Assembly: GCA_035288045.1 (NCBI GenBank) | Contig: DATEBA010000052.1 | Coordinates: 3,788-67,787, forward strand | Reading direction: 5' to 3' | DNA: 64,000 bases | DNA from: Actinomycetota bacterium | Lineage (GTDB): Bacteria; Actinomycetota; UBA4738; HRBIN12 | In this document: piece by piece, positions 4,273 through 64,000 of the stretch | How positions within the stretch are numbered: position 1 is the first letter of the stretch | Layout of the letters: each line of letters opens with the position of its first letter | Position numbers and translations under genes: made by a program | Notes under the pieces: generated by a model | Databases searched by the model: none | What the model saw: the letters and a program-made list of their open reading frames with translations, nothing else | Told to the model about the DNA's origin: nothing

Positions 4273-4371
4273 ACCGCTGGTGTCATTGTTGACGGAGCGG
4301 GCCGCCGGTGCCGTGCCGGCAGGGCATCATCCCTCAAGGAAGCGGCCTCCCGCGTCGTTCCTAGGAGAGCG

Positions 4372-5538: not shown

Positions 5539-5541
5539 TCC

Positions 5542-38551: not shown

Positions 38552-38555
38552 CCGC

Positions 38556-39059: not shown

Positions 39060-39076
39060 TCCCGGCCGGGGGGGAG

Positions 39077-50714: not shown

Positions 50715-52346
50715 ATGTCGAGCCGCCCGACCCCCGAGACCGAAGGCACCGTCGACCTCCGGCAGTACATCGCCGTGATCCGCCGGAACCGGCGGCTGAT
50801 CGCTGCGGTCGCGGTCGGCTGCGTGGCTCTGGCCGCGCTGTACACCTTCATCCGGACACCGATCTACACGTCGAAGGCGAAGATCCTCCTTTCGCCCACC
50901 CTCGTGAACTCGACCGGCGTGGTGGATCTCGAGAAGAGCATCGACGCCAACACCGAGCGCGAGATCGCCCTGTCGAGCTCGGTGGCGATCCTGGCCCGCA
51001 ACACCCTGGAGAGCGAGGAATCCGTGCAGGATCTCGTCTCCCACGTGAGCGCCGACGCGCCGCAGGACTCCCGAACGCTGGAGATCGCCTTCTCCCACCC
51101 CGGCCCGAAGGCCGCCAGGGACGGGGCCTTGGCCTTCGCCAACGCGTACCTCAAGTACAAACGGGATCAAGCCCTGGCCGACATCCAGGATCAGATCGAC
51201 CCCCTGATCGAACAGATAAGCGAATACAAGGCCTACCGCTTGGAACTCACGGAGACGATCCGTTCCGAGAGACCGGGCTCGATCCCCGTCCAGCAAGCGG
51301 TCAACGACAAGCAGGAGGCGCAGGCCCAGATCGACTACCTGAACGGGCAGATAGCGGGCCTACAGGCCCTTACCACGAGCGGCGGAACCCTCATCGGGGT
51401 CCCCGCCGTTCCGCTTTCCCCGAGCAGCCCCAACCACCCGCTCGACGTCGGCCTCGGCCTGTTCTTCGGTGTCTTCCTCGGCTTCGGCCTCGCGTTCTTC
51501 CGCACGCGCGCCGACGCCCGCCTCCACGAGCGCCTGGAGCTGGAGCAGGTAGTGGGCGCGCCGGTGCTGGCGGTAGTGCCGAAGGACATCGAGTGGACCC
51601 ACAGGACGGCGCCGCGGCTGGTGACGGTGCAGGACCCGCGGGGACCGACCGCCGAGGCGTTCCGCACGCTTCGCCCGACGCTCCTCGTGTCGGCGGCACA
51701 GCAGAACGTTAAGGTCATCATCATCGCGTCGCCGACGGCCGGCGAGGGCAAGACGACGACGGCGGCGAACCTCGGCGTGGTGATGGCCCAGGCCGACCGG
51801 CGCACGATGATCGTTTCGGCCGACCTGCGCAAGCCGCGGATCCACGAGTTCTTCGGGCTGCCCAACGAACGAGGGCTCTCCGACGTGCTCACGGGCAAGC
51901 TCTCGCCGATGGACGCGCTGCGACGCTCCGGGGTCGAGAACCTCTGGCTCATGCCGAGCGGGCCGATCCCCGCTCAGCCGGCGGAGCTCCTCCAGTCGAT
52001 CGCCATGAAGGAGCTGCTCGCCGAGCAGCGGGGACTCGTCGATTTCATCCTGCTGGACTGCCCACCGATCCTGGCGGTGGCCGACACCCTCGGCCTGGCC
52101 GCTTATGCCGACGGCGTCTTGCTCGTCGCCAACGCCGGATCCACGACCATCGACGCGGCAGAGCAGGCGCGCGAGCGGCTGCACCAGGTCGGGGCGAGTA
52201 TGCTCGGCTGCGTCCTGAACGACCTCGACCTGAGCACGACCACCTCTTACTACGGATACGGATACGGCGAGGACGTCGCCGCACCTGAGCCGAACGGCAA
52301 AAAGCGCCGGGAGGTCTCGCCACGGCGCGGGCAGACCTCGAGCTGA
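50715..52346 (+). CDS. Polysaccharide co-polymerase / tyrosine autokinase (Wzc/BY-kinase-like, with Wzz domain and P-loop ATPase)
   Basis: There are two transmembrane helices flanking a periplasmic coiled-coil domain. The Walker A motif is 'ASPTAGEGKTTTAANL'. The C-terminal 'SYYGYGYG' is a tyrosine cluster. Confidence 0.8.
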   Translation: MSSRPTPETEGTVDLRQYIAVIRRNRRLIAAVAVGCVALAALYTFIRTPIYTSKAKILLSPTLVNSTGVVDLEKSIDANTEREIALSSSVAILARNTLESEESVQDLVSHVSADAPQDSRTLEIAFSHPGPKAARDGALAFANAYLKYKRDQALADIQDQIDPLIEQISEYKAYRLELTETIRSERPGSIPVQQAVNDKQEAQAQIDYLNGQIAGLQALTTSGGTLIGVPAVPLSPSSPNHPLDVGLGLFFGVFLGFGLAFFRTRADARLHERLELEQVVGAPVLAVVPKDIEWTHRTAPRLVTVQDPRGPTAEAFRTLRPTLLVSAAQQNVKVIIIASPTAGEGKTTTAANLGVVMAQADRRTMIVSADLRKPRIHEFFGLPNERGLSDVLTGKLSPMDALRRSGVENLWLMPSGPIPAQPAELLQSIAMKELLAEQRGLVDFILLDCPPILAVADTLGLAAYADGVLLVANAGSTTIDAAEQARERLHQVGASMLGCVLNDLDLSTTTSYYGYGYGEDVAAPEPNGKKRREVSPRRGQTSS

Positions 52347-52474: not shown

Positions 52475-54346
52475 GTGAGCGCGCTCTCGGTCCGCGGTCA
52501 TCTCCAGGACGCGCGAGCGGCGATGAACGCGGGGAAGCGCCAGCTGCTCGCGGGGGACGCAGCGGCCGCATCGCGGAGCTTCGAGGACGCGACCGCCGCC
52601 TTCGTCCGCGCGGCCGACGGTGCGGAGAGCCCGTGGATGCGCGTCGTTGGGTGGCTCCCGCTCGTGGGGCGGACGCCGGACACAATCACCTCCATCGCCT
52701 ACGCCGGCGAGGAGACGGCCGGCGCGGGGCGTACCCTGGCCGATGCGGTGGCAGACCTCCCCGGCGGCCTCGGCTCGTTGGCGCCCTCCGGGGGAAGGTT
52801 CCCGATCGAGCGGATAGCGAGCCTCGCCGGCGCAGTCGACCGGGCCGCGGCGCTCGTGAGCCGCGCGCACGCGCGTGTCGCGGCGAGTCCTGGGGAGATG
52901 CTCCCGGGCGTCGTCGACGACGCGAGGTGGGAGGCGGAGACCCAACTTCGGTCCTTGTCGACCTCCCTCGGGGCGGCCGCGCGGGTGCTCGAGGGGCTCC
53001 CGGGCTTCCTCGGTGCGGACGCCCGACGCCGGTACTTCTTCGGCGCGCAGAACCCGGCCGAGATCCGCGGGACCGGGGGTCTCATAGGCGCCTACTCGAT
53101 ACTGACGGTCGAGGACGGCCGGTTCGAGTTCTCCGACTTCCACCCGATCCAGGAGCTACCCCTGCTCGGCACGGAGAAGGTCGAGCCACCGAGCGCCGAC
53201 TACGCGAGGAACTACGACTACTACCGGTCGGGCGACGGGTTCTGGCTGAACGCCAACATGACGCCGGACTTCCCCTCGGCCGCCGAGGCCTTGGAGCTCT
53301 CCTACGAGGCGGCCACCGGCGACGAGCTCGACGGCGTGATCGCGGCGGACCCGTTCGCGCTCGAGGCGCTGCTGCAGATCACCGGCCCGACCGAGGTACC
53401 CGAGCTCGGCCTCGAGGTGGGGGCCGGGGACGTGGTGGCGTTCACGACGAACGAGGCCTACGCGAAGTTCACCGACGCGCCCACGCGCAAGCTTGTCCTC
53501 GGGGCGGTGGCCTCGGGCGTGTTCGACCGGTTCCTGCACATCCCCGACCCCTCGCTCCGGCAGCTGCGTGTGCTCGCCGACGCGGCCGCCGGCGGTCACA
53601 TAAGCATCTTCGCCGACGACCCGGAGCTGCAGGAGGGACTCGCCGCGACCGGCGTCGGAGGCGCGCTCCCCAAACCTACCGGTGACTTCCTCTCCGTGAT
53701 CCAGAACAACGGCTCGGCGAGCAAGGTCGATTTCTACCTCGAGCGCACGCTCACCCACCACGTCCGACTCGAGGGGGACGCCACGGTCACCGCGACGACG
53801 GCGATCACCTTCCGGAACGACGCCCCCGACCGCGGCATGCCGCGCTACGTGATCGGGCCGTTCCACGGGATCTCCGAGGCCGGGGAGAACATCCCTCTCG
53901 TCAACCTGTACTGCGGCGTGAACTGCACGCTGGCCGAGGCCGAGCGCGACGGGGAGCAGGTGGACCTCGCGCGGGGTACCGAGCTCGGCCTGACCTACTA
54001 CCGCGACTACTTCGACATCCCGAGCGGCCGCTCCGCCGAGCTACTGGTGGAGACCTCCACCCCCGATGCGTGGGAGGGGAACAGCTCGGGGGGCACCTAC
54101 CACCTCACGTTCCTCAACCAGACGACGATCCGGCCGACGCGGGTGCGGATCGAGATCGAGCTGCCGGAGGGCATGCGGGTCGCCCAGATGAGCGCGGATC
54201 TCCGCGCGGAGGGGGACACGCTGGTCTTCGAGGGGATCCCCCCGCGGCTCCTCGAGCTACAGGTGCGGTTCCGCCCCCCGTTCCTGCTCCGGATGTTGCG
54301 GAACGTGACGCGGTTCCTATCGGAGCCGGTGGTGCGGGTGGGCTAG
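52475..54346 (+). CDS. DUF4012 domain protein. Its N-terminus is uncertain.
   Basis: The size is 623 aa. The in-frame upstream 129 nt encode an Arg-rich plus transmembrane segment ('RRRRTLAAGDRRRRRLPRPP...LLATAVLVGALLGLSF') but contain no ATG/GTG/TTG, only CTG. Confidence 0.6.
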   Translation: MSALSVRGHLQDARAAMNAGKRQLLAGDAAAASRSFEDATAAFVRAADGAESPWMRVVGWLPLVGRTPDTITSIAYAGEETAGAGRTLADAVADLPGGLGSLAPSGGRFPIERIASLAGAVDRAAALVSRAHARVAASPGEMLPGVVDDARWEAETQLRSLSTSLGAAARVLEGLPGFLGADARRRYFFGAQNPAEIRGTGGLIGAYSILTVEDGRFEFSDFHPIQELPLLGTEKVEPPSADYARNYDYYRSGDGFWLNANMTPDFPSAAEALELSYEAATGDELDGVIAADPFALEALLQITGPTEVPELGLEVGAGDVVAFTTNEAYAKFTDAPTRKLVLGAVASGVFDRFLHIPDPSLRQLRVLADAAAGGHISIFADDPELQEGLAATGVGGALPKPTGDFLSVIQNNGSASKVDFYLERTLTHHVRLEGDATVTATTAITFRNDAPDRGMPRYVIGPFHGISEAGENIPLVNLYCGVNCTLAEAERDGEQVDLARGTELGLTYYRDYFDIPSGRSAELLVETSTPDAWEGNSSGGTYHLTFLNQTTIRPTRVRIEIELPEGMRVAQMSADLRAEGDTLVFEGIPPRLLELQVRFRPPFLLRMLRNVTRFLSEPVVRVG

Positions 54347-54352
54347 AACGCA

Positions 54353-54380
54353 GGAGCCCCCGCCCGAGGGCGGGGGCTCC
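54353..54380. terminator. Strong GC-rich hairpin between convergent genes (candidate bidirectional terminator)
   Basis: 'ggagcccccgccc' (54353-54365) pairs perfectly with 'gggcgggggctcc' (54368-54380). It lies between the DUF4012 stop (54346) and the stop of the small minus-strand gene (54394). Confidence 0.45.
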
Positions 54381-54393
54381 GACGAACGATTTC

Positions 54394-54636
54394 CTATCGG
54401 GTCGCGGACGCCTTGCGCCTGCTGGCGAGAAGTGCCGTAACGCCCACGACCACGAGGACCGCGAGGATCGCGACCCCGAGCGAGATGTTCGCGCCGGTGA
54501 AGGCGGAACCCCCGCCGGCGTGCTTCACGTCGGTCGGTGGCGGGTCCGAGAACGGGTACTCCGCGAGCGCCGGGGCCGCAACGGCGAGGCAGAAGACCGC
54601 CGCCGCCGAAAGAGCTATCCCGAGCCGCTTCATCAA
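54394..54636 (-). CDS. Tiny secreted protein (80 aa) with an N-terminal signal peptide and a C-terminal sortase-like sorting signal
   Basis: The signal peptide is 'MMKRLGIALSAAAVFCLAVAAPALA'. The C-terminus is '...GGGSAFTGANISLGVAILAVLVVVGVTALLASRRKASATR'. This has 'SAFTG', which is near the LAxTG motif, followed by a transmembrane helix and a basic tail. Confidence 0.45.
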   Translation of the reverse strand: MMKRLGIALSAAAVFCLAVAAPALAEYPFSDPPPTDVKHAGGGSAFTGANISLGVAILAVLVVVGVTALLASRRKASATR

Positions 54637-55166
54637 CGCCCCTTTCGATCCTTGTCCGTCGGCTTACCTACGTCGACACCGAAGTCTAGGCGGTGGGCGC
54701 CGGATGGACAAGGGACGAACGCCTCTGGTCGCACGGTCCATATCGACGAACCAAGGTCCTAGGCCACCGGGTCCCGCCGTGCCCCACGAGGTGGAAGGAT
54801 CCTTGCGCCTCGCAAACGACGATCCCGGGGCGAGCGCTTCCACTCCCTCCACATACCGCATCCTCTGTACCCCGAGGCGTCCTTCGCCCCCCGTCGCGCT
54901 CCCCGCCGGGGGACGCCGTCCGGCAAGGGGTTCGCGTAGACGGGCGACCCGACCTGGCCCGGACTGCTCACCTTTCTCCTCAAGTCTGCGGTAGTCCCTG
55001 CCGATAGGCGGGGGAGCACAGAGAGATGCGCCTGCGAAAGGCAAACCCGCCGGGGGGGCGGGGCCGCAAAGCTCCGGGCCCAGACCGGTGGCCGAGCCGC
55101 TGAGCAGGGATCGCGAGGCATCCGCCTCCGCCCCGCTCGCAGAGCCGCGGGGAAAGGAGGTTCGCG

Positions 55167-56129
55167 ATGCGTGCATCGCACGCGCGAGGGGGAACCGCGG
55201 TAGCCACGCTGCTCGCCATCCTAATTACGGTCGGCGCTTCGATGCCGATCAAGGCCGAAGTGGTTCGGACACCACCGCTCGTCCCGAGTCGTGGAGCCTA
55301 CTTCGGTGGCTACTACCGCATGACGGACTGGTCGGTCGAGGCTCAGAAGAGCACGTTCACCGATCTCGAGGCTGCCATGGGCCGGACCCTCGACATCGCC
55401 CACTTCTACTACGACTTCAACGGCGCCATCAACCCTTGGCGCGACAAGTGGCACATCGAGAACGGGCGCATCCCGATGATCTCGTGGCAGGGCTACTACA
55501 CCGACCAGATCATCACGGGCCAGCACGACGGGACCATCGCTCGCTGGGCCGACGACATCAAGGCGCTCGGTGCGCCGGTGTTCCTCCGGTGGTTCTGGGA
55601 GATGGACGACAAGAAGAAGGCGCACTGGACGCAATCGCCCGAGAACTTCATCGCGGCGTGGCGACGCCTGCACGACATCTTCACGGCTCGCGGCGCGACC
55701 AACGCCGTGTGGGTGTGGTGCCCGAACGCGTGGGCCTTCCGGGTCAACACGGCCAACCAGTACTATCCGGGCGACGCGTACGTCGACTGGGTGTGCGCCG
55801 ACGGCTACAACTGGGGGACCCTCGGCTACGGGTACGACTGGGATCTGTTCCCGGCGATCTTCGGCGACTTCTACGAGCAGTGGGCCGGACGCAAGCCGTT
55901 GATGGTCGGCGAGACCGGCGCCGTCGAGCAAGGGGGCAGGAAAGGGCGGTGGATACGAGACCTGCGCTCCATACTCCGGTTCCAGCTCCCGGAGATCAAG
56001 GCTCTCGTTTACTTCAGCTCGGCCGACGGCGTCTACGACTTCCGGATCGGGACATCGACCAGGGCGTACAACGGCTACACGGCGCTAGCAGGGCGACGGT
56101 ATTTCAATCCACCTCATCCCGCGAGCTAG
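55167..56129 (+). CDS. Secreted glycoside hydrolase, GH26-like (mannanase-fold)
   Basis: It has a signal peptide. The motifs 'WFWEMD' and 'MVGETG' are consistent with the GH26 catalytic acid/base and nucleophile Glu. Confidence 0.55.
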   Translation: MRASHARGGTAVATLLAILITVGASMPIKAEVVRTPPLVPSRGAYFGGYYRMTDWSVEAQKSTFTDLEAAMGRTLDIAHFYYDFNGAINPWRDKWHIENGRIPMISWQGYYTDQIITGQHDGTIARWADDIKALGAPVFLRWFWEMDDKKKAHWTQSPENFIAAWRRLHDIFTARGATNAVWVWCPNAWAFRVNTANQYYPGDAYVDWVCADGYNWGTLGYGYDWDLFPAIFGDFYEQWAGRKPLMVGETGAVEQGGRKGRWIRDLRSILRFQLPEIKALVYFSSADGVYDFRIGTSTRAYNGYTALAGRRYFNPPHPAS

Positions 56130-56163
56130 GGTCCTGGGCGGCAACCGAGGCCGCGGGGGCGCC

Positions 56164-57393
56164 TCACGCCCCCGCGGCCTCCGCCATCTCTCCCAGGATC
56201 GCCGGGTACACCCGGGGGTTTCGCCCGGCCCCGGCGGCGGCCGCCTCCTCGAACCGTACGTAGAGCTCGGCCGCGTATAGACGCCCGGCAGCGGCGGCCG
56301 CATCGTGATCCATCCCCAGCCCCCGGAGCGATGGCAGGGAGGCTCGCCTACCCCACTCCAGCGACCGGGGGAGCGGAAGCCGATCGTGTAGGAACGCCAC
56401 GCTCGTGTAGAAGTGGACGAGGTCGAACCCAACTGGGGTATGGGCCGCGCTGTGCTCCCAGTCCCACGCGGCCAGATGCCCCTTCCGGATCGCCAGGTTC
56501 CACGGGACCCAGTCCCCGTGCCACCGACCCACCGGCAGCGTCGCGCGGCCGTGCTCTCCCTCGATGCGCGCGAGGAGCCGCTCTGCCGGGAGGGCGACAT
56601 CGCCGCCTAGGTTGGCGATACGCGCTCTCAACCGCGCGAGGTACGGGCTAGCCGACAACGATCCGCGCGAGACCGACCCGAGCTCCGTGACGGCGCGCGT
56701 CACCTGGAGCGGAGGCGGCTGGCGCAACGGCCGGAGGCGACTGACGCCCCGGGGCAGCGGTGAGACGGCGGAGAGCGCGAGTCCACGCCACGCCCCCTCG
56801 TGCATGACCCGCGGGATCCACAGCGAAGCCTCCTCGGTGCCGTTCAGCTCTCGAAGCGTAAGCGCCTCGTTCCGTACTAGCCCGGCGGTGAAGGCATTCC
56901 ACCCGACCTTGACGTAGGCGACGGGCCTGCCGCCGAGCGAGAACAGCTGCGCAACCGGCTTCCTGTTGGGCCCCTGACGGCCCACGCCGAACGCGGCGAG
57001 GACCCGCTCGGATCCGAGCGCCCGCTCGAGGTGTCGCACGAGCAGGATCGAGCCGAGGCGATCATCGGGCAATGACCCCGGCACGCACACGAGGAGGGGC
57101 CCCCCGAACACGCGCCCACCGAGGCCGGCGCGCACGAGGAGCGAGGCCGCCTCACGTGCGGTCCGAACGACCGGCGGCCGGAGCGAGTTATACCGGCGCA
57201 GCGAGGCTGCCGCCGAGCGACGCGACTCCACCGAGACGAGGAACCGCGGGCGAGCCAGGCTTGGGATGACCGCGTACGACTCCACGACCCGATACCCGTC
57301 GGGGACCGGACCTTCGAGCACGGCACGGACATCTTCGGTGCCGCCCCAGATCACGTCGACGAGCCAGCGCAGGCTCGGATGTACCTCGCCCAC
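56164..57393 (-). CDS. Phosphotransferase enzyme family protein (aminoglycoside-kinase/APH fold)
   Basis: The Brenner motif is 'HGDWVPWNL' with 'VGFDLVHF' further on. The N-terminal Ser-rich 156 aa of ORF 56164..57861 overlap the sulfotransferase gene and are discarded. A GTG start is placed at 57393, 4 nt after the upstream stop. Confidence 0.6.
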   Translation of the reverse strand: MGEVHPSLRWLVDVIWGGTEDVRAVLEGPVPDGYRVVESYAVIPSLARPRFLVSVESRRSAAASLRRYNSLRPPVVRTAREAASLLVRAGLGGRVFGGPLLVCVPGSLPDDRLGSILLVRHLERALGSERVLAAFGVGRQGPNRKPVAQLFSLGGRPVAYVKVGWNAFTAGLVRNEALTLRELNGTEEASLWIPRVMHEGAWRGLALSAVSPLPRGVSRLRPLRQPPPLQVTRAVTELGSVSRGSLSASPYLARLRARIANLGGDVALPAERLLARIEGEHGRATLPVGRWHGDWVPWNLAIRKGHLAAWDWEHSAAHTPVGFDLVHFYTSVAFLHDRLPLPRSLEWGRRASLPSLRGLGMDHDAAAAAGRLYAAELYVRFEEAAAAGAGRNPRVYPAILGEMAEAAGA

Positions 57394-57397
57394 CCGC

Positions 57398-58273
57398 TCA
57401 GCTCCAGTCGAACCGACGACCGAGGAGCTCGAAGAGCCGTTCGTTGTGCGGCCGGAAGTGGGCGACGAGCCGCCGGCGCGTCTCCGGATCCATCGAGCCG
57501 CCCTCGGCGGCGTTGAACTTCTCGTAGCTGTTGAGGTCCATGGGTCGAACGCCGAGGAAAGCGTGCACGCGACGCAGCTCCTCTCCGGGTTGGGCGAAGA
57601 ACTCCTCGCTCCCGACGACGAGGAGACGCTGCCTGGGGAACCGCTCCAGCCAGACGCCGAGTTGGTCCGCGTACTCCCCCCGCGCCATGTAGGTGTGATG
57701 CTGGTGGGAGAAGCTCCGGTATCCCGGGTCGTCGCGGAGCCGCGCGAGCTCGCCAGCCGTTCGCTCGGGCTCGCGGGCGATGGCCTCCGCGAATGGCAGC
57801 GTTTCGTAGCCGAGCCGCGCCTCGTGACGCCATTGCGAGAACGCTCGCTCCACGGGGTCACGGACCATCGCGATGAGCCGGACGTCGGGGAGGAGGCCGG
57901 CCACGCGCTCGGGTACGAGGGGGTGGACCAGGTAGTAGGGGCTCGCCTCGCCCGGGACGAGCGACTCGCCGGTCCGCTCTCGGTGCCTCAGATGCGCCGC
58001 TCTGGTGGGGAAGAACCGTCGGTACCAACCCTCCCCGCGGTCGTACCGCAGGTCGAAGAAATGCACCTCCTTGGCCAGACGCGCGCCTGCGATGTCTGGG
58101 TGCCGGATGAGGTAGTTGTAAAGCGACGTCGTGCCGGCGCGCTGAGCACCGATGATGAGGTAGTCGGGGAGCACACGGGGACCGCCGACAGCGGCAAGTC
58201 CGACGCGGAGCACGCCTTTCGCGCTCTCCCGCACGTCGCGGGGCACGGCCCGAACGAGGCCCCGCACGCTCAC
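57398..58273 (-). CDS. Sulfotransferase (PAPS-dependent, Sulfotransfer_1/3-like)
   Basis: The 5'-PSB motif is 'LIIGAQRAGTTSL' and the 3'-PB region is 'RDPVERAFS'. The start is trimmed to a GTG at 58273 that overlaps the upstream stop as GTGA. The N-terminal Arg-rich part of the ORF overlaps the previous gene. Confidence 0.7.
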   Translation of the reverse strand: MSVRGLVRAVPRDVRESAKGVLRVGLAAVGGPRVLPDYLIIGAQRAGTTSLYNYLIRHPDIAGARLAKEVHFFDLRYDRGEGWYRRFFPTRAAHLRHRERTGESLVPGEASPYYLVHPLVPERVAGLLPDVRLIAMVRDPVERAFSQWRHEARLGYETLPFAEAIAREPERTAGELARLRDDPGYRSFSHQHHTYMARGEYADQLGVWLERFPRQRLLVVGSEEFFAQPGEELRRVHAFLGVRPMDLNSYEKFNAAEGGSMDPETRRRLVAHFRPHNERLFELLGRRFDWS

Positions 58274-60747
58274 GTCTCCCACCCGAAGTCGGTCCCGATG
58301 AGCTCCGCGAGCCTCCGGTTGTGCGGTGCGAAGTGCTCCCGCAGGCGGCGTCGGATCGAGGCTTCCATCGCGGAGCCGGGATGGTAGTTCAAGCGTCCAT
58401 ACCCCTCGAGATCGACGAGCGGGAGCTCCAGGAAGGCCTGGACGCGCCGGAACAGGCCGGCGGGGTCTTCGAACATGTCCTCGCTCCGCACGACGAGCAG
58501 CCGCTCGCGCGCGAACCGCTCGAGCCACAACTCCAGCGGTGCGGCGTACTCACCCTGGCCAACGTAGGTAAAGTGCTCGTGGGCGTAGCTGTACGCGTGC
58601 TCGTCGGCGAGCAGCCGGGCGGCCTCGCCTCGCACGCGATCGGCCTCCGCGTCTATGGCCTCTTCGAACGTGAGGGGCTCGGCGCCGTGACGGAGGCGCT
58701 CTCTGTAGTGGGAGAACGCGCGCTCGACGGGATCGCGAAGGATCACGATGAGCTTGGCGTCGGGCACGGTCCGATGCGCTCGCTCGGGGGCGCGCGGATG
58801 GAAGAGGTAATAGGGGCTCGCCTCGCCCCCGAGGTAGGGGCCGCCGAGGCGCCGCTCCATCCGCCGGACGCGCGCCCGCGTAGGGAAGTGCGATCGGTAC
58901 CATCCGTCCCCGTTCGCATAGTGCAGGTCGAAATACCGGATGCCCTTGATCCGTTGCACCGCAGGATATATCGGTGACACGTGCGGGTGCTGTAGGAGGT
59001 AGTCGAACAGCGAGGTCGTGCCGCCTCGCTTGGCGCCGATCACGAGGAAGGACGGGAGCCCGCGGGTGCCACCCGTGAGGACGCCCCACGAGCGAAGCGC
59101 CCCTTTCATCCCCTCCCGGACGGAGCGGGGCGCGCGGTGGCGGATCGGGGCGCGCAGCATCCCGGCAGAACCGTCGCCGTCACCTCCACGGCGCGAGAAG
59201 GCCCCCACGAGCAACGGAAGCCTAAGAGTGTGGCGCAGGCGCCACAGTAGCGGTCCGTACAGTCCGCCCGCGACCGCGAGCGCCAGGATCCCAGACCCCC
59301 AGGTCGCTCCGAGGGCGGCGCGCGCCGCGAGACCTGCGCCGCCGACGCAGACGAGCGATCCCGTTGCCACCTTCCAATACCCGTCGCCGAACGGGCGGAT
59401 CCCGAGAAGGAACCGGACCTCGAGCAACGCGGCGACGTTGTCGAACACGATGCTCGCCGTCCACGCGATCGCCGCGCCCTCGATCCCCAACCGCGGGATC
59501 AGGAGGAGGTTCAGCCCGACGTTCAACGTTACGGCGCCTATCGTGTTGAAGAGGTTCCACGAGCTCCTCCCGCCCATCAGCAGAACGGCCGTCACGTTGC
59601 CGGTGCCGAGGTTCACGAGCATCGCGAGCGAGAGGATCAGCAGCACGTGCTGGCCCCGCGGGAACTCGGGACCGAACAGGCCGAGCACGAATGGCGCGAA
59701 CGTGGCGAACGCCAGGTAGAGCGGCCACGATGCGGCGATGAGCCACCATGTGGCGACGCGGTAGAGGTCCTCCGCCTCGGCCTTGCGATCCCGCGCCAGT
59801 AGGCCGCTCAGCTGAGGCGCGAGGGCCAGCCGCACGGCCTGCAGAGCGAGCGTTCCCATCACCACCAGTCGGCTCACGGCCGCGTAGACGCCGGCCTCTT
59901 GAGCCGTCCTCATCGACGAGACGAGGAGCACGTCCAGCCAGGTGATCGCCACCTGGAACGCACCGGCGAGCCCGCGGGGGCCAGCGAAGCGCCAGAACTC
60001 GGTCGCCAAACCGGGCGGCCGTGAGCGTCGGGCCGGCACCCCTGCGTCGCGCTCGAGCGTCCGGACCAGCCGGTCGAAGACGAGGACGGCGACCGCGAAC
60101 CCGGCGACGACCGGGATCACCCACGCGAACGCGATCCACGTTGCGCTCAGGCCGAGCAGGACCGCCCCCAGCACGAGCAGCAGGCGTGCCGCGGGCTTCC
60201 CGAGGTTCTCGACCAGCACGTACGGCGCCATCGTGCCGAAGCCGCGAGCGCCCGACACCAGCACCGTGGAAGCGCCGGAGACGAGAAGGAACGGCGCGAA
60301 GAGACGCAGGTACTCGGAACCCTCCGCTCGGTAGGCTTCCTCGAAGATCGCGCGAGCGAGCGGGGCGGCGAGCGCGAACACCAATGCGGCGGCGACGCCG
60401 CCGGTCGCGAGCACCGGCCACAGCGCCGTCGCGAGGATCGGGCGAACGTCCGCGTCTCGGCCGAGCGCTCGGTATCGCGATATCGCACGGACGAGTCCCG
60501 TGTCGGCTCCGAGCTCCGTCACGTTGCTCGCGATCATGAAGAGCGCGACCGCCGCGAAGAAGACGCCGGCGCCCTCGGCACCGAGGCCGCGAGTAACGAC
60601 GACGACCAGGGCGAAAGCGAGGATCCCCCCGAGCACCATCCCGGCGAGGTTGAGCGACCCGCCGCGCGCCAGGAGGCCCAGGTCGTCGCTCCGGCGGCCC
60701 TGCGCCGCCCGAGACGGGGCCGCGAAGTCGCGCGCGCCCTCGAGCAC
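58270..60747 (-). CDS. Fusion protein with an N-terminal polysaccharide-biosynthesis flippase (Wzx/MOP superfamily, ~520 aa) and a C-terminal PAPS-type sulfotransferase (~300 aa)
   Basis: This is a single 825-aa open frame with no stop between the 12-14-helix Wzx-like part and the ST domain. The ST domain has 'FLVIGAKRGGTTSLFDYL' and 'RDPVERAFS' and is a close paralog of the downstream ST. Confidence 0.65.
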   Translation of the reverse strand: MLEGARDFAAPSRAAQGRRSDDLGLLARGGSLNLAGMVLGGILAFALVVVVTRGLGAEGAGVFFAAVALFMIASNVTELGADTGLVRAISRYRALGRDADVRPILATALWPVLATGGVAAALVFALAAPLARAIFEEAYRAEGSEYLRLFAPFLLVSGASTVLVSGARGFGTMAPYVLVENLGKPAARLLLVLGAVLLGLSATWIAFAWVIPVVAGFAVAVLVFDRLVRTLERDAGVPARRSRPPGLATEFWRFAGPRGLAGAFQVAITWLDVLLVSSMRTAQEAGVYAAVSRLVVMGTLALQAVRLALAPQLSGLLARDRKAEAEDLYRVATWWLIAASWPLYLAFATFAPFVLGLFGPEFPRGQHVLLILSLAMLVNLGTGNVTAVLLMGGRSSWNLFNTIGAVTLNVGLNLLLIPRLGIEGAAIAWTASIVFDNVAALLEVRFLLGIRPFGDGYWKVATGSLVCVGGAGLAARAALGATWGSGILALAVAGGLYGPLLWRLRHTLRLPLLVGAFSRRGGDGDGSAGMLRAPIRHRAPRSVREGMKGALRSWGVLTGGTRGLPSFLVIGAKRGGTTSLFDYLLQHPHVSPIYPAVQRIKGIRYFDLHYANGDGWYRSHFPTRARVRRMERRLGGPYLGGEASPYYLFHPRAPERAHRTVPDAKLIVILRDPVERAFSHYRERLRHGAEPLTFEEAIDAEADRVRGEAARLLADEHAYSYAHEHFTYVGQGEYAAPLELWLERFARERLLVVRSEDMFEDPAGLFRRVQAFLELPLVDLEGYGRLNYHPGSAMEASIRRRLREHFAPHNRRLAELIGTDFGWET

Positions 60748-60750
60748 GGA

Positions 60751-62058
60751 CTACCCCGCCCCCGCGGCCGCCGGCGCCCTCTCGCCCGCCGTCGCCGTCG
60801 CCTCCACCGCCTCGGTAAAGGCGCGGCGCTCGCGCAGGGCGATCGCGCTCGCGAGCATCACCACGTGGATCTGGCTCGGCAGCATGCCGTAGTAGGGCAG
60901 CTGGAGCAGCACGATCACCAGGGTGACGTGGGACCAGAAGGTGGCCCAGGAGCCGCCCCGCCGGCTGATCCACGCCACGTAGGCGAACCACCCAACGTAG
61001 AACAGAGCCCCCGGGACCCCGTGGGAGAACAGCACGAGCCAGAGCTGTCCCTGGGTTCCGACCGACGGGAGGTTGGGGTTCTCCGCCGAGGGCCGCGGCG
61101 ATCCGTAGCCGAGGAGCGGCGACTGCAACACGCCTTCGCCGGCCTCCGATGCCAGCGATATGCGCGCGCGGTTGCTGTGACCGGTCACCAGCCGGTCGGC
61201 GACGAGCTCCCGCAGGGGCGTGAAGGCGATGACGAGGCCGAGCACGGCGAACAGTAGCAGCACCCCGCCGAACGCGGTGCCGCGTCCGAGAAGCGCGAAC
61301 CGCCACGATGCGTACAGCAGGCCGAGGCCCAGTGAGAGCCACAACCCCCGGTTGAGCGACATGACTATCGGGACCGCGGACGCCACTAGGAGCGCGATCG
61401 TTATCGGGCGCCAACCCCACCGGCGGATGAACGACCAGCTGGCGATCAGGAGCGGCGTGAGCAGAGCGAAGTTGGCACCCCACTCGTTCGTGTACACGAA
61501 GGGCGCTGCGGGGCGTCCGACAGGATACCCGAGGAAGTCGTGGATCTGCGCGAACCTTGGGTGCACCAGTTGAGAGAACCACTCGTTCGCCATGAACCTC
61601 CCGGGCACGATCGACTCGACCGGCGTCGAGAAGCTCACCTCGGAGAAAAGCACGCCGAGGTACCCGCCCGCCACGACGTAGGCCCAGAACACCCCGAGGG
61701 CCAACAGGATCCGGCCCGTCGGGAGCTGCTCCTCGGTCGAGTTGTAGACGTAGAGGAACAGGATGGTCGCCGATAGATAGAGCGATGCGCGGTAGATGAA
61801 GACGAGACCGCGCGTCGGCTCGTCCAGCATGAGGGCGGAGCCCGCCATCCAGACGAGGAACGCCAGCCAGATCCCGAACCCTCTGGGAGCGCGGACGTCA
61901 CGCCGCAGGACGAGGGACGCGAGCATCGGGAGGGCGAGGATCGGCCAGACGAACGCCCCCAGGCCGAGCACCCACCAGATCGGAAAGGCGACGAAAAGGG
62001 CGTAGAGCAGCAAGCCCGCAGGTAGCCGTAGGGAGCGTGTCGTGGTGGGCCTCGCCAT
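60751..62058 (-). CDS. O-antigen ligase / Wzy-like polymerase family membrane protein
   Basis: It has 435 aa and about 10-12 transmembrane helices. The Wzy_C-type periplasmic loop has 'SLNRGLWL'. Confidence 0.7.
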   Translation of the reverse strand: MARPTTTRSLRLPAGLLLYALFVAFPIWWVLGLGAFVWPILALPMLASLVLRRDVRAPRGFGIWLAFLVWMAGSALMLDEPTRGLVFIYRASLYLSATILFLYVYNSTEEQLPTGRILLALGVFWAYVVAGGYLGVLFSEVSFSTPVESIVPGRFMANEWFSQLVHPRFAQIHDFLGYPVGRPAAPFVYTNEWGANFALLTPLLIASWSFIRRWGWRPITIALLVASAVPIVMSLNRGLWLSLGLGLLYASWRFALLGRGTAFGGVLLLFAVLGLVIAFTPLRELVADRLVTGHSNRARISLASEAGEGVLQSPLLGYGSPRPSAENPNLPSVGTQGQLWLVLFSHGVPGALFYVGWFAYVAWISRRGGSWATFWSHVTLVIVLLQLPYYGMLPSQIHVVMLASAIALRERRAFTEAVEATATAGERAPAAAGAG

Positions 62059-62972
62059 CAGATCCCCTTCCCGACGGAGTGAGCCAGGCGGAGGATCGTC
62101 TCGGGACGCAGGAGCCCAAGACTCACGAGGAAAGCCAGGTATGCCCGACGCTCCCGCCAGTCCGCACGGAGAGTCCGTCGGGCCCAGCTGCGAGCGAGGG
62201 CCCGATCCCCCGCCCCCGCGAGCGCGAACGCGATCTGCCCGCTAACGCGGGCGAGTCCCCGGGGGTCGGTCTCGAACTCCGGGTAACGCTGCAACAGGTA
62301 GGTGAGGCCCTCCGCCATCATCCGCCAGCGCCCTTCGAAGTACGACGCGGTCCCCCAGTGCACCCGGACGAGCGGGCGAGGCACCGCCACGATCGGCGCG
62401 AGGCGTGCGGCCCGGAGCAGCCACTCGTAGTCCTCGCCGAAGCTCCCCGGGATCTCCTCGTCCACCTGGCCGATCCTCTCCAGGAACGCGGAGCGCCGCA
62501 CGAGCAGCGTCGAGGAGTGGAGCTCCGCTACCCTGGAGTGAAGCAGGTGACGGAAGGTCACGAGCTCCGCGGGCGGCAGACGCTCGATGCTCCGGCCCCG
62601 ATACTCGACGACGATGCCCGAGGAGGCGACGTCCGAGCCGGGCTCGCGGTCCAGCGCCTCCACCTGCAGACGCAGCTTGTCGGGCAGCCACTCGTCGTCG
62701 TCGTCGCAGAAGGCGAGGAGCTCGCCGCCGGCGCGCTCCGCGCCGGCATTCCTGGCACCGGCCAGCCCGGGTCGGTGATCGTTCGAGACGACGTGGACGC
62801 GCCGCCCGGGACCGGTCGTCACCTCGATCGCCTTCGGATCGCTGCGATCGAACACGACGAGGCACTCGATGTCGCCGTCGTATCGCTGACCGAGGATGGC
62901 CCGAAGCGCGCGTCGGACGAGCTCGGGGCGATCCCGGGTGGGCACGACGGCGGTCACCGGAGGCACGCTCAC
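62058..62972 (-). CDS. Glycosyltransferase family 2
   Basis: Has 'VTAVVPTRDRP' and the 'DDDDEW' DXD motif. The start is trimmed to a GTG at 62972 overlapping the upstream stop (GTGA). The stop overlaps the ligase start (ATGA). Confidence 0.7.
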   Translation of the reverse strand: MSVPPVTAVVPTRDRPELVRRALRAILGQRYDGDIECLVVFDRSDPKAIEVTTGPGRRVHVVSNDHRPGLAGARNAGAERAGGELLAFCDDDDEWLPDKLRLQVEALDREPGSDVASSGIVVEYRGRSIERLPPAELVTFRHLLHSRVAELHSSTLLVRRSAFLERIGQVDEEIPGSFGEDYEWLLRAARLAPIVAVPRPLVRVHWGTASYFEGRWRMMAEGLTYLLQRYPEFETDPRGLARVSGQIAFALAGAGDRALARSWARRTLRADWRERRAYLAFLVSLGLLRPETILRLAHSVGKGI

Positions 62973-63988
62973 CGGTCGCCTCCTCCGCGCACGCGGTACC
63001 CGTAGCGGTAGAGCAGCGGCATCGTGATCGCGGAGACGAGGCGCCGGCGGCCGGGGTCCATCCCATGCCTCCACTCCTCGTCCGGGCGGAGCTCCACGGG
63101 CCCCGTGCGGAACCGCATCGGGTTGCCGGACACGGTGTGTCCGACGCCGAGCTCCGCGGCACCGTCACGAAGGAAGGCGAGTGCATCGTCTCCGAGCCCC
63201 TCCCCGGTGAGGTGGAGGATCCGCTCCAGCTCGCGGCGGGGGTCCGCAACCAGGGACTCGTAGCGAACGAGGAGCATCGGCACTCCGGTAAGCCGGAGCA
63301 ACTCGAACAAGCCATTGTACGCCACCCAGTCGGTGCCGGCGCGTGCGGCGCCCGGCGTGGGCATGTAGGCCTCGCCGGCGACGACCTCCGGGCGCCGCAC
63401 GCGCCTCCCCCACGAGAACGCGACGCCGCGACTGTCACGGACGAGGTGCGCGACGCGAAGATCGACGCCCGGCACGCGGCGCAGGAGGAACGCCGTCGAC
63501 GCGTGCTTGGACGAGTCCACGACCACCCGCGCGCCCGCGACGGAGGCCAACGCCCCGTACAGTCGACCGAGAAGGTGGGCGTATCGCCGCAAGCGGTCCC
63601 GGTAGCGGCCGCGAGGCGCCAGCATGAGGGGGATGAACCGGTTTCGGTCGACGCTTCGCTGCAGCCCCAGGACCTCGGCGGGCTGAAGCCTGTCCCAGCC
63701 GCCGAACGCGGCCTCGCCGACATCCGCCCAGTACGGGCACGCGCGGAACCGCTCGCCGCACCCACACAGCTGGTCCCCTGCTAGCCCGCGCCGCCAGAGG
63801 TGCACGACCTCGCCGACCGACACGAAACCGGGGATCTCCCCCAGCATGCGGTCGAGCAATGTGCTCCCGCTCCGGCCGGTGCCGCCCACGTAGAGCACAC
63901 GTACCCGCCGGGGCGGCGAAGGCGCATCGGCGGCGAGCGCGTCGACGAGCCGCGCGAACCGCTCCACCCCCTCGGGCGGCGCGTCCAC
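62969..63988 (-). CDS. Sulfotransferase family protein (Sulfotransfer_3-like, PAPS-dependent)
   Basis: The P-loop-like 5'-PSB motif is 'LYVGGTGRSGSTLL' with 'RDSRGVAFS' further on. It is the first gene of the minus-strand operon. The exact start is near the window edge. Confidence 0.65.
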   Translation of the reverse strand: MDAPPEGVERFARLVDALAADAPSPPRRVRVLYVGGTGRSGSTLLDRMLGEIPGFVSVGEVVHLWRRGLAGDQLCGCGERFRACPYWADVGEAAFGGWDRLQPAEVLGLQRSVDRNRFIPLMLAPRGRYRDRLRRYAHLLGRLYGALASVAGARVVVDSSKHASTAFLLRRVPGVDLRVAHLVRDSRGVAFSWGRRVRRPEVVAGEAYMPTPGAARAGTDWVAYNGLFELLRLTGVPMLLVRYESLVADPRRELERILHLTGEGLGDDALAFLRDGAAELGVGHTVSGNPMRFRTGPVELRPDEEWRHGMDPGRRRLVSAITMPLLYRYGYRVRGGGDR

Positions 63989-64000
63989 GGGCCTCCCTCG

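Follow-up and report, generated by a model that had tools for sequence, protein, structure and literature searches.

A Wzx/Wzy-type locus with three sulfotransferase domains and a predicted sulfated polysaccharide product in an Actinomycetota bacterium

The Locus and Its Operon Structure

In the analyzed window, a stretch of 64,000 nt of DNA from an uncultured Actinomycetota bacterium, a locus was identified which, judged from its gene content, probably directs the Wzx/Wzy-dependent formation of an anionic, sulfated heteropolysaccharide. It combines an eight-gene operon with convergent genes for a Wzc-type co-polymerase, a DUF4012 protein and a glycoside hydrolase of family 26 (GH26). The predicted product of the operon is most likely a sulfated, probably also phosphorylated, polysaccharide that is surface-bound or secreted. 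An earlier note had read the genes as a Wzx/Wzy-type locus whose glycan is multiply sulfated and possibly phosphorylated, and this proposal stood up to all computational tests that were run.

GC3 phase analysis supports six consecutive coding regions on the minus strand between 56164 and 64000. The six genes described before are real, and their domain assignments hold in Pfam:

62969..64000, minus strand: G1, the 3′ 1032 nt (residues 147-489 of 489) of a gene for a fusion of an Alg13/PssE-like glycosyltransferase and a Sulfotransfer_3 domain
62058..62972, minus strand: G2, GT2 glycosyltransferase of 304 aa (Pfam Glycos_transf_2, 79.4 bits)
60751..62058, minus strand: G3, polytopic membrane protein of the Wzy_C family, 435 aa, putative repeat-unit polymerase
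58270..60747, minus strand: G4, 825-aa Wzx flippase with a C-terminal heparan-sulfate-3-OST-like sulfotransferase
57398..58273, minus strand: G5, stand-alone heparan-sulfate-3-OST-like sulfotransferase of 291 aa, or 289 aa from the GTG at 58267
56164..57393, minus strand: G6, soluble kinase with an APH/choline-kinase fold, 409 aa

All junctions from G1 to G6 are overlaps or gaps of at most 4 nt. G1 and G2 overlap by 4 nt (GTGA), as do G4 and G5 unless G5 starts at 58267, which leaves a gap of 2 nt; G3/G4 and G5/G6 are separated by 3 and 4 nt, respectively. The tight spacing reported earlier, the GTGA overlaps and both gaps were thus recovered, but the supposed ATGA junction between G2 and G3 is a TGATG with an overlap of 1 nt.

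The reading frame of G1 is open up to base 64000 and is truncated by the end of the window. On near-identical metagenome contigs (99.85-100% identity) the operon consists of eight genes, of which the window holds the distal six. Located 5′ of G1, outside the window, are a priming transferase and an Alg14/PssD-like gene, spaced by 4 and 6 nt. Pfam assigns them to Bac_transf and Alg14, and NCBIfam classifies the former, a phosphoglycosyl transferase (PGT), as TIGR03025 (430 bits, cutoff 295.55) and the latter as PssD/Cps14F (NF041549, 113 bits, cutoff 110). Because of these two coupled upstream genes, the operon comprises eight genes and not six, a count that had been set by the window edge.

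Sulfotransferase Domains

The intact G1 was found on a contig of 99.99% identity (L003:4713-6182), where it encodes 489 aa. Its product contains an Alg13/PssE-like Glyco_tran_28_C domain, which lies outside the window, followed by Sulfotransfer_3 (Pfam); the N-terminal part also matches WelK/PssE-like families (NCBIfam) with scores under their cutoffs. The part inside the window (62969 to 63988 and beyond) reaches 37 bits for Sulfotransfer_3 (cutoff 27) and carries the 5′-PSB motif GGTGRSGST (63860-63886) and the 3′-PB motif VRDSRGVAFS (63413-63442). The GTG at 63988, formerly taken as the start, is codon 151 within the inter-domain linker, and the earlier label of sulfotransferase covers the C-terminal 343 residues of a glycosyltransferase-sulfotransferase fusion of 489 aa.

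The G4 protein unites Polysacc_synt (63 bits) with Sulfotransfer_1/_3 (46/55 bits) in one chain of 825 aa (Pfam), as the earlier note had stated. The Wzx part (MOP/Polysacc_synt, residues ~28-503) has 14 helices and is followed by a disordered linker (519-538) and the sulfotransferase (541-825) with the motifs GAKRGGTTS (59011-59037), GEASPYY (58807-58827) and RDPVERAFS (58711-58737). The AF2 model (pLDDT 86.4) reproduces the 14 helices, the disordered linker and a folded sulfotransferase domain, with low confidence in the relative orientation of the two domains (pTM 0.63). In an alignment of 37 fused homologues, K573, R574, G576, T578 and S579 of the 5′-PSB and R671, P673, R676, S679 and H680 of the 3′-PB are invariant. 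The N-terminus and alternate loops of G4 are rich in K/R, which places the sulfotransferase in the cytoplasm, the side where PAPS is available.

G5 (Sulfotransfer_1, 58 bits, Pfam) is a paralogue of the G4 sulfotransferase domain (50% identity, BLASTP E = 4e-91). It matches HS 3-OST-3A (PDB 1t8t) with E = 2.7e-27, and in the alignment GEASPYY falls on EKTPSY, the motif with the catalytic Glu. The PAPS motifs and the position of the catalytic Glu in G5 and G4 are shared with the animal HS 3-O-sulfotransferases (3-OST-1/-3/-5) and the sulfotransferase domain of NDST, all being carbohydrate O-sulfotransferases. However, the animal enzymes work in the Golgi lumen on the finished polymer, whereas the cytoplasmic G4 and G5 domains presumably modify a repeat unit that is still lipid-linked and not yet flipped. 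With all three domains above their Pfam cutoffs and equipped with both PAPS-binding motifs, the assignment as PAPS-type sulfotransferases is retained and an unrelated P-loop family is dismissed.

Polymerase Candidate and Kinase

G3 contains several hydrophobic helices and scores 25.7 bits for Wzy_C, under the Pfam cutoff of 31.7, so that its assignment as polymerase or ligase is left putative.

G6 lies just above the Pfam cutoff for APH (23.3 against 23.2 bits). Its active site is intact, with K162, HGDWVPWN (residues 292-299, 56497-56520) and DWE (residues 311-313, within 56455-56466); K162, HGD, N299 and DWE are invariant, and the AF2 model has a pLDDT of 93.9. The family is large and uncurated, and some of its members are fused to sulfotransferases or glycosyltransferases, namely Sulfotransfer_3, a GT14 Branch domain or WecG, which ties the kinase to glycan assembly. 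The closest structural neighbours of G6 act on small molecules, not on glycolipids, and the glycan is proposed here as its substrate by inference throughout. By analogy, WaaP (the LPS core heptose kinase) and the eukaryotic glycan kinases FAM20B and POMK also have a protein-kinase-like fold and phosphorylate a sugar in a nascent glycoconjugate. A role of G6 as substitute for APS kinase was ruled out, since such kinases co-occur with a canonical APS kinase in two homologous loci (L029, L095).

Convergent Genes and a c-di-GMP-I Riboswitch

The genes for Wzc, DUF4012 and GH26 do adjoin the operon, as noted before. They are not upstream of it, but lie on the plus strand and converge on its 3′ end, i.e., downstream:

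50715..52346, plus strand: Wzc-type co-polymerase/tyrosine autokinase, Wzz N-domain and P-loop kinase (Pfam Wzz/AAA_31)
52475..54346, plus strand: DUF4012 protein (Pfam DUF4012, 113.5 bits)
54394..54636, minus strand: small ORF of 80 aa with signal peptide, SAFTG motif, hydrophobic helix and basic tail
55030..55104, plus strand: c-di-GMP-I riboswitch aptamer in the GH26 leader (Rfam RF01051, 38.3 bits, GA 35)
55167..56129, plus strand: secreted GH26 glycoside hydrolase, 320 aa (Pfam Glyco_hydro_26, 33 bits)

Wzc exceeds the cutoff of NCBIfam TIGR01007 (159 bits, cutoff 108) and ends in a tyrosine cluster (YYGYGYG). The DUF4012 protein has 623 aa counted from the first GTG and 607 aa in metagenome gene calls. 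L001 and L097 have the small ORF as a predicted gene of 75-79 aa. It matches NCBIfam LAXTG_small_WW weakly (26 bits, under the cutoff) and possibly encodes a sortase-dependent small surface protein.

The N-terminus of GH26 is hydrophobic, in line with a signal or TM segment. The aptamer in its leader is followed by a hairpin (55100-55175; -41.3 kcal/mol, z = -3.3) that sequesters the SD and the AUG of GH26. The riboswitch ahead of GH26 is conserved in the alignment and reaches 56.1 bits (E = 3e-8) in L097. It seems to control GH26 at the level of translation; the aptamer is assigned by sequence, and the direction of the regulation is a supposition.

Distribution and a Related Gene Cluster

The Wzx-sulfotransferase pair, fused or as neighbouring genes, occurs in at least 68 Actinomycetota species, many of them cultured, and is contiguous in 68 of 80 genome loci. 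Arthrobacter frigidicola, Micromonospora rosaria and Actinocorallia longicatena are candidates for cultured carriers of the cluster. In relatives lacking the fusion, the sulfotransferase gene follows wzx with a 4-nt overlap. The same kinase, GT2 and Wzy accompany the pair: among 49 homologous loci of at least 20 kb, GT2 and Wzy were each counted in 47 and the kinase in 46, followed by Alg13 (41), Alg14 (38), Wzc and GH26 (31 each). The locus type, supposed to be rare and poorly described, is thus common across Actinomycetota genomes; that it is poorly studied is true, as one genetic paper, published in 2026, was found (PMC13390465).

This first genetic description concerns the wps-1 cluster (WpsA-K) of Actinoplanes missouriensis (Tezuka and Ohnishi, AEM 2026; PMC13390465). 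Sporangia were defective when wpsG (Wzx), wpsH (HS-type sulfotransferase), wpsI (kinase-like), wpsJ or wpsK was deleted, and also upon deletion of the neighbouring gene for sulfate adenylyltransferase/APS kinase; the product is predicted to be a sulfated EPS, for which the authors await verification. Compared by its published gene descriptions, wps-1 resembles the locus in the window as an actinobacterial Wzx/Wzy cluster with GT2, Wzy, a Wzz/Wzc protein and GH26, and in the order of an HS-type sulfotransferase, one of two, directly after Wzx and before a protein-kinase-like gene. However, Wzx and sulfotransferase are separate in wps-1, and GT26 (WecG/TagA), a methyltransferase and DUF4262 are found there in place of the Alg14/Alg13 pair with its second sulfotransferase fusion. 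Three sulfotransferase domains, the DUF4012 gene and the riboswitch on GH26 distinguish the window locus.

Alternative Interpretations

A reading in which the polymer is an ordinary EPS without sulfate is very improbable; the sulfotransferase domains would then be inactive relics or use another acceptor, such as a small molecule or lipid. This would fit the finding that PAPS-synthesis genes are missing from the 64-kb window and from the next 10 kb upstream on near-identical contigs, as well as the predicted status of sulfation in every homologue, wps-1 (PMC13390465) included. Yet two of the three domains are fused to an Alg13-like glycosyltransferase and to Wzx, both fusions are conserved in many genera, and the residues for PAPS binding and catalysis show no variation. 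The PAPS supply asked for earlier is encoded beside homologous clusters, with CysD/CysN/APS-kinase motifs within 10 kb in 20 of 80 loci, similar to wps-1, and with ATP-sulfurylase and APS_kinase inside the L095 cluster.

G3 might instead be a ligase or oligosaccharyltransferase (WaaL/PglL-like) transferring a short sulfated oligosaccharide onto an acceptor such as a protein, a lipid or the wall. The O-antigen ligases make up the Wzy_C family, whose cutoff G3 does not reach, and a gene for a small sortase-signal-like surface protein lies within the locus; nevertheless, this is unlikely in view of the Wzc, which exceeds its curated cutoff and recurs in 31 of the 49 related loci, and of the conserved, secreted endo-type GH26, both hallmarks of polymer production, and A. 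missouriensis requires both WpsJ and WpsK (PMC13390465). Somewhat less remote, though still doubtful, is a function of G6 in precursor formation, either as an NahK/AmgK-like anomeric sugar-1-kinase whose product enters a nucleotide sugar or as an ethanolamine/choline-type kinase yielding a phospho-alcohol substituent. Neither the locus nor the near-identical contigs contain a LicC/MurU-like nucleotidyltransferase or a LicD-type transferase, and the fusion partners of the family (sulfotransferase, GT14, GT26) act on the growing glycan.

Proposed Pathway and Characterized Systems

For the sulfated heteropolysaccharide, the following pathway can be assumed. The PGT, by sequence of the WbaP/EpsZ class, would load a hexose-1-phosphate onto polyprenyl phosphate, after which the Alg14/PssD-like membrane subunit and the Alg13/PssE-like domain of G1 may attach a second sugar and GT2 a third. 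The second linkage is probably beta-1,4, by analogy with PssD/PssE (Rhizobium), Cps14F/Cps14G (S. pneumoniae) and WelK, which likewise combine a membrane-associated Alg14-like with an Alg13-like catalytic subunit and add the second, beta-1,4-linked sugar onto the lipid-linked primer; G1 differs from PssE and WelK by its C-terminal Sulfotransfer_3 domain and sub-cutoff scores. The lipid-linked repeat unit would then be O-sulfated by the three cytoplasmic PAPS-dependent domains, one on the Alg13-like glycosyltransferase, one tethered by the linker to the cytoplasmic C-terminus of Wzx and one free; domains, motifs and topology follow from sequence and fold, the acceptor being presumed. G6, an active kinase by the same evidence, may phosphorylate the same lipid-linked glycan. 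Wzx would flip the modified unit, and its tether, or the translational coupling in relatives, probably secures sulfation just ahead of export. Polymerization would fall to the Wzy_C protein, with chain length and export governed by Wzc, and the secreted GH26, translated under riboswitch control, would trim or release the beta-linked polymer.

Sulfation in such a pathway was shown by staining and analysis for synechan, the product of the xss cluster of Synechocystis sp. PCC 6803 (Maeda et al., eLife 2021; PMC8205485). The xss cluster and the window locus are both Wzx/Wzy-dependent EPS systems by gene content, xss with two PAPS-type sulfotransferases, glycosyltransferases, flippase, polymerase and PCP. 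The xss cluster differs in being cyanobacterial and plasmid-borne, with eight glycosyltransferases and an OPX exporter, and it has neither a kinase nor GH26, and its sulfotransferases are fused to neither Wzx nor a glycosyltransferase. Its regulation depends on XssS/R/Q and not on a riboswitch.

Organization of the Polysaccharide Operon

The window has a G+C content of about 70%, and raw ORF lists are therefore full of spurious frames. In the third-position GC phase plot, six consecutive coding regions were found on the minus strand from position 56164 to the window end (G1 to G6 in transcription order). Their start codons were picked from the sequence, and their domains were assigned with Pfam. 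Two further genes precede G1 outside the window, and three genes lie on the opposite strand.

Genes of the polysaccharide locus, in transcription order of the operon, followed by the genes on the opposite strand (window coordinates unless a contig is named)
L003:2783-4252, operon, phosphoglycosyl transferase (PGT), 489 aa, Bac_transf 226 bits, TIGR03025 "EPS polyprenyl glycosylphosphotransferase" 430 bits (cutoff 295.55)
Beyond the window end, operon, Alg14-like protein, 149 aa, NCBIfam PssD/Cps14F model 113 bits (against 110)
62969 to window end, minus, G1, Sulfotransfer_3 37 bits (cutoff 27)
62058-62972, minus, G2, Glycos_transf_2 79 bits
60751-62058, minus, G3, Wzy_C 25.7 bits (under the cutoff of 31.7)
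58270-60747, minus, G4, 825 aa, N-terminal Polysacc_synt and C-terminal Sulfotransfer_1/_3
57398-58273, minus, G5, Sulfotransfer_1 58 bits
56164-57393, minus, G6, APH 23.3 bits (at the cutoff of 23.2)
50715-52346, opposite strand, Wzc-type co-polymerase/tyrosine autokinase with Wzz and P-loop kinase parts and a C-terminal tyrosine cluster, TIGR01007 159 bits (against 108)
52475-54346, opposite strand, DUF4012 protein
55167-56129, opposite strand, GH26 hydrolase

The phase plot and the Pfam run bear out, in essence, the six genes and the domain assignments of the earlier note, which had been made from the sequence without searches. G1 and G2 overlap by 4 nt (GTGA), G3 and G4 are separated by 3 nt and G5 and G6 by 4 nt, while the G4/G5 junction is either a GTGA overlap or, with an alternative GTG at 58267, a gap of 2 nt. 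These junctions agree with the earlier reading, except that the ATGA proposed between G2 and G3 is a TGATG with a 1-nt overlap.

The operon extends beyond the six genes described before, as the window edge removes its 5′ end. An exact look-up of the 339-aa product first proposed for G1, an ORF truncated at the window end, gave no match. Look-ups with G4 and G3 led to many metagenome contigs, which share 99.85-100% identity with the window across 11-14 kb. On these contigs the full-length G1 product has 489 aa, with a Glyco_tran_28_C domain (Alg13/PssE-like) in its first ~145 residues followed by the Sulfotransfer_3 domain. The window encodes only residues 147-489, and the GTG at 63988, previously taken as the start, is codon 151 in the linker. 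G1 thus does carry the sulfotransferase domain attributed to it, but as part of a fusion to an Alg13/PssE-like glycosyltransferase. The two genes ahead of G1, for the PGT and the Alg14-like protein, are spaced by gaps of 4 and 6 nt, and the operon therefore comprises eight genes; the PGT gene was located on contig L003, which is 99.99% identical to the window. The genes for Wzc, the DUF4012 protein and GH26 had been placed immediately upstream. They are present, but converge on the 3′ end of the operon and are downstream partners. A simple promoter and terminator scan of 54300-56400 gave nothing useful. On the whole, the finding is real and its functional reading sound, with corrections at the 5′ end and in parts of the anatomy.

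Between the DUF4012 and GH26 genes lies an ORF of 80 aa (54394-54636, minus strand) with a signal peptide, an SAFTG motif, a hydrophobic helix and an RRK tail. It matches the NCBIfam model 'LAXTG motif-containing small protein' weakly (26 bits, under the cutoff), and a gene of 75-79 aa is called at the same site in related contigs. Its product may be a sortase-dependent small surface protein of the locus.

Sulfotransferase Domains and the Flippase Fusion

All three sulfotransferase domains pass their Pfam cutoffs, and an assignment to an unrelated P-loop family, which would have contradicted the earlier reading, was not seen. The stand-alone sulfotransferase G5 scores 58 bits with Sulfotransfer_1 (cutoff 22) and 51.7 bits with Sulfotransfer_3 (cutoff 27). 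With E-values from 2.7e-27 to 1e-15, it matches PDB crystal structures of the heparan sulfate (HS) 3-O-sulfotransferase 3A1, of 3-OST-1 and 3-OST-5 and of the sulfotransferase domain of NDST. The 5′-PSB loop GAQRAGTTS, the 3′-PB motif RDPVERAFS and the GEASPYY segment of G5 all align with these structures, and GEASPYY falls on the EKTPSY motif, which bears the catalytic glutamate of 3-OST enzymes.

The sulfotransferase domain of G4 is a paralogue of G5 (50% identity), with 54.7 bits for Sulfotransfer_3 (against 27) and 46.2 bits for Sulfotransfer_1 (against 22). In an alignment of 37 full-length Wzx-sulfotransferase fusions of 45-75% identity, its motifs GAKRGGTTS, RDPVERAFS and GEASPYY are invariant, as are the PAPS-binding residues K573, R574, G576, T578, S579, R671, P673, R676, S679 and H680. 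The G1 domain is more distant, its best PDB match being the CurM sulfotransferase (E = 5e-4), and its motifs GGTGRSGST and VRDSRGVAFS are recognisable.

The flippase part of G4 matches Polysacc_synt with 63.4 bits (cutoff 28.2) and has 14 predicted helices. G4 is annotated at NCBI merely as "oligosaccharide flippase family protein". In the AlphaFold2 model (pLDDT 86.4) the 14 helices reach to residue ~503, residues 519-538 form a disordered linker and the sulfotransferase domain after it is folded; at a pTM of 0.63 the relative orientation of the two domains is unreliable. The distribution of lysine and arginine fits a cytoplasmic N-terminus. With 14 helices, this puts the sulfotransferase domain in the cytoplasm, where PAPS is synthesized. 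G3 is a polytopic membrane protein, the sequence of which does not separate polymerase from ligase.

Distribution in Actinomycetota

A scan of one genome per GTDB species yielded 509 relatives. Among the best 80 of these, Wzx and sulfotransferase are contiguous on the same strand in 68, all from Actinomycetota. The earlier note had regarded such a locus as rare in bacteria of this kind; it is common in Actinomycetota genomes. Cultured carriers belong to the genera Actinocorallia, Micromonospora, Arthrobacter, Nocardioides, Nonomuraea, Actinomadura, Actinoallomurus, Sinosporangium and Spirillospora. The best identity in the scan is just ~54%, and the lineage of the window is therefore without a close representative among these genomes.

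The remaining genes were followed by tblastn with the eleven proteins of the locus and were counted in those fused loci, 49 in all, for which 20 kb of sequence or more was present.

Conservation of locus genes in 49 fused loci
GT2, 47 of 49
Wzy-like protein, 47 of 49
APH-like kinase, 46 of 49
Alg13, 41 of 49
Alg14, 38 of 49
Wzc, 31 of 49
GH26, 31 of 49
PGT, 29 of 49

One sulfotransferase domain is present in 33 of these loci, two in 13 and four in three. The Alg13-sulfotransferase fusion is a minority form (5 of 49), and was also seen in the related loci L093, L094, L096 and L097. The distinctive fusions of the window locus are themselves widespread. L096 (75% identity) and L097/L098 (57%) have exactly the eight-gene order of the window operon, and L097 also has the convergent set of GH26, small ORF, DUF4012 and Wzc. 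In L093, L094 and L095 the Wzx is unfused and its gene is directly followed by one for an HS-type sulfotransferase; the two genes overlap by 4 nt in L093 and L095 and lie 30 nt apart in L094. The conserved pairing of Wzx with a following sulfotransferase thus occurs in two states, as a fusion or by translational coupling. A homologue of the kinase is found in two of these three unfused loci.

PAPS Supply

Genes for APS kinase, CysD/CysN or ATP sulfurylase were not found in the 64-kb window, either by six-frame scans for the motifs of APS kinase, CysN, CysD and ATP sulfurylase or by Pfam searches with 40 of its 52 other candidate genes, namely those that lie upstream of the operon's six genes. 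Likewise, the 10 kb upstream, as represented by the near-identical contigs, hold no PAPS-synthesis genes. In 20 of the best 80 of the 509 related loci, however, signature motifs of CysD, CysN or APS kinase occur within 10 kb of the Wzx-sulfotransferase gene. An APS kinase gene directly follows it in four Arthrobacter loci, and L095 contains ATP-sulfurylase and APS_kinase inside the cluster. As judged by these motifs and domains, PAPS genes beside homologous loci lend independent genomic support to a putative PAPS-consuming pathway.

The Kinase Family of G6

G6 belongs to a large, uncurated family, of which an exhaustive profile search found 1827 representatives (50% clusters) at E ≤ 1e-30, annotated almost wholly as "hypothetical". 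Homologues from Micromonospora are 36-41% identical to G6. The APH profile (PF01636) matches only 8 of 40 family members, with G6 itself just reaching the cutoff. In the PDB, the kinase profile found no more than a marginal sequence match, to LicA. G6 has a bilobal kinase fold and no transmembrane segment, and its AlphaFold2 model is confident (pLDDT 93.9). K162, H292-G293-D294, N299 and D311-W312-E313 are invariant in the 40 members. Of these, K162 is the ATP lysine, HGDxxxxN the catalytic loop and D-x-E the metal (Mg)-binding motif of APH/choline-kinase enzymes.

Different roles were considered for G6. A function as non-canonical APS kinase was rejected, as a canonical APS kinase co-occurs in the Arthrobacter loci and in L095. 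A role as aminoglycoside-resistance gene or as protein kinase was also rejected, as the gene is kept in 46 of the 49 clusters and some of its relatives are fused to glycan enzymes. The few fusions join the kinase to Sulfotransfer_3, a GT14 "Branch" glycosyltransferase, a WecG/TagA fragment or an alpha/beta hydrolase (family proteins P0388, P0309, P0382 and P0306). Taken together, the fusions, the co-occurrence and the canonical APS kinase alongside argue that G6 acts on the nascent glycan, which would be its substrate. Another family member, P0278 (804 aa), apparently contains two copies of the kinase.

Comparison With Known Systems

The closest described system is the wps-1 cluster of Actinoplanes missouriensis, which codes for a GT2 (WpsA), a sulfotransferase (WpsB), a GT26 (WpsC), a DUF4262 protein (WpsD), a GH26 (WpsE), a methyltransferase (WpsF), Wzx (WpsG), a heparan-sulfate-type sulfotransferase (WpsH), a protein-kinase-like protein (WpsI), Wzy (WpsJ) and Wzz/Wzc (WpsK), and is adjoined by a sulfate adenylyltransferase/APS kinase gene (PMC13390465). 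Deletion of wpsA, C, G, H, I, J, K or the PAPS gene leads to defective sporangia (PMC13390465). A sulfated EPS as product was proposed by the authors of this June 2026 study, who describe its verification as still awaited, and who state that no Wzx/Wzy cluster with a GH26, a family of mostly beta-mannanases and other beta-glycanases, had been characterised before (PMC13390465).

Compared by domain and description, both loci have Wzx with an HS-type sulfotransferase beside it, a kinase-like protein, GT2, Wzy (in the window a Wzy-like protein), Wzz/Wzc and GH26, and the order of Wzx, sulfotransferase and kinase is the same. Unlike wps-1, the window locus has a third sulfotransferase domain, fuses a sulfotransferase both to Wzx and to Alg13, and uses an Alg14/Alg13 pair in place of the GT26. 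It is without the methyltransferase and the DUF4262 protein; in domain searches of the window locus and its upstream extension, none of GT26, methyltransferase and DUF4262 was found. A GT26 is present in the related locus L095.

Among the systems compared, product chemistry is available for a single bacterial Wzx/Wzy system of sulfated EPS, the cyanobacterial synechan (xss) cluster (PMC8205485). Unlike the window locus, it is without kinase, GH26 and fusions. Reports on marine Vibrio and Cobetia mention sulfated capsules and sulfotransferase genes. When the literature was searched in full text for Wzx flippases combined with sulfotransferase domains, the Actinoplanes study and one unrelated paper were the only matches. 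As far as this literature shows, the fused Wzx-sulfotransferase architecture is undescribed, yet it is common in genomes. The window locus belongs to a kind that is common in the genomes of Actinomycetota and was recognised by genetics in 2026.

A Cyclic di-GMP Riboswitch Upstream of GH26

A single Rfam element was identified in the whole window, a c-di-GMP-I riboswitch aptamer (RF01051) at 55030-55104 on the plus strand (38.3 bits, GA 35). It lies in the 5′ leader of the GH26 gene, 62 nt ahead of the ATG. The same aptamer precedes GH26 in L097 (L097:11845-11919, minus strand, 56.1 bits, E = 3e-8), and its core is nearly identical in both, although the Wzx-sulfotransferase proteins are only 57% identical. 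A search of 12 homologous loci at greater distance did not detect the riboswitch, which is therefore lineage-restricted. The 76 nt past the aptamer (to 55175) are predicted to fold into a hairpin of -41.3 kcal/mol (z = -3.3), in which both the AUG and the GGAGG Shine-Dalgarno sequence are buried. This fold suggests that GH26 is under translational control by the riboswitch.

Three adjacent response-regulator genes are located at 3103-6516, coding for REC-EAL (3103-4272), REC-HisKA-HATPase (4387-5538) and REC-GGDEF (5542-6516, minus strand) proteins. Together they could be a c-di-GMP module that feeds this riboswitch.

Proposed Pathway

The identities of the domains, their active-site motifs, the cytoplasmic placement and the conservation are shown by the analysis. 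In the pathway that we infer, with its acceptor sugars, order of steps, kinase substrate and coupling of sulfation to flipping, the PGT would prime polyprenyl phosphate with a hexose-1-phosphate. The second sugar would be added by the Alg14/Alg13 pair, characterised members of this family forming beta-1,4 links, and the third by the GT2. The lipid-linked unit would then be decorated by the three cytoplasmic sulfotransferase domains and the kinase and flipped by the Wzx carrying its own sulfotransferase. Polymerisation by the Wzy_C protein would be controlled by Wzc, and the secreted GH26 would trim or release the polymer.

Sulfated polysaccharides are valued biomaterials and are usually seen as an animal, algal or cyanobacterial trait. 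With relatives in at least 68 species representatives, cultured genera included, the genetic capacity for them is widespread in soil Actinomycetota. The conserved and specific core of Wzx, HS-type sulfotransferase and uncharacterised kinase makes the question raised by the 2026 Actinoplanes study, whether actinomycetes truly make sulfated polysaccharides, directly testable in strains that are easy to grow. Two uncharacterised activities emerge as well, that of a sulfotransferase tethered to a flippase and that of a kinase family associated with glycans, and the riboswitch ties the locus to c-di-GMP signalling.

A broader proposal, which we put forward tentatively and hold to be rather less probable than its opposite, is that Wzx, a tethered or coupled HS-type sulfotransferase and a dedicated APH-fold kinase constitute a phylum-wide actinobacterial route to sulfated and phosphorylated glycosaminoglycan-like polymers. 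In this route, modification would be physically tied to flipping, and the sulfotransferase tethered to the flippase would serve as the final checkpoint in the cytoplasm. The kinase family (~1800 representatives at 50% identity) would form a new class of kinases for lipid-linked glycans, and polymer release would be set by the c-di-GMP riboswitch on GH26.

Other Genes in the Window and Its Surroundings

Upstream of the polysaccharide operon, an intergenic region of ~300 nt is preceded by Tad/Flp-pilus-type genes (L003:1-2480 and L007:1-5384), which code for a CpaE-like ParA ATPase, a CpaF-type T2SSE ATPase, a VWA-TadB fusion and TadC (T2SSF). Three regions of the plus strand are coding by GC3 and had no Pfam match at E ≤ 0.001, namely 41356-42723, 22954-23385 and 29803-30624 (455, 143 and 273 aa). 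Finally, genes for His_Phos_1 phosphomutase-like, DUF3090 and PI3_PI4_kinase-like proteins succeed one another at 37916-39772. They represent a conserved actinobacterial trio, and phosphate-transporter genes (PhoU_div/PHO4) and a CorA gene lie ahead of them.
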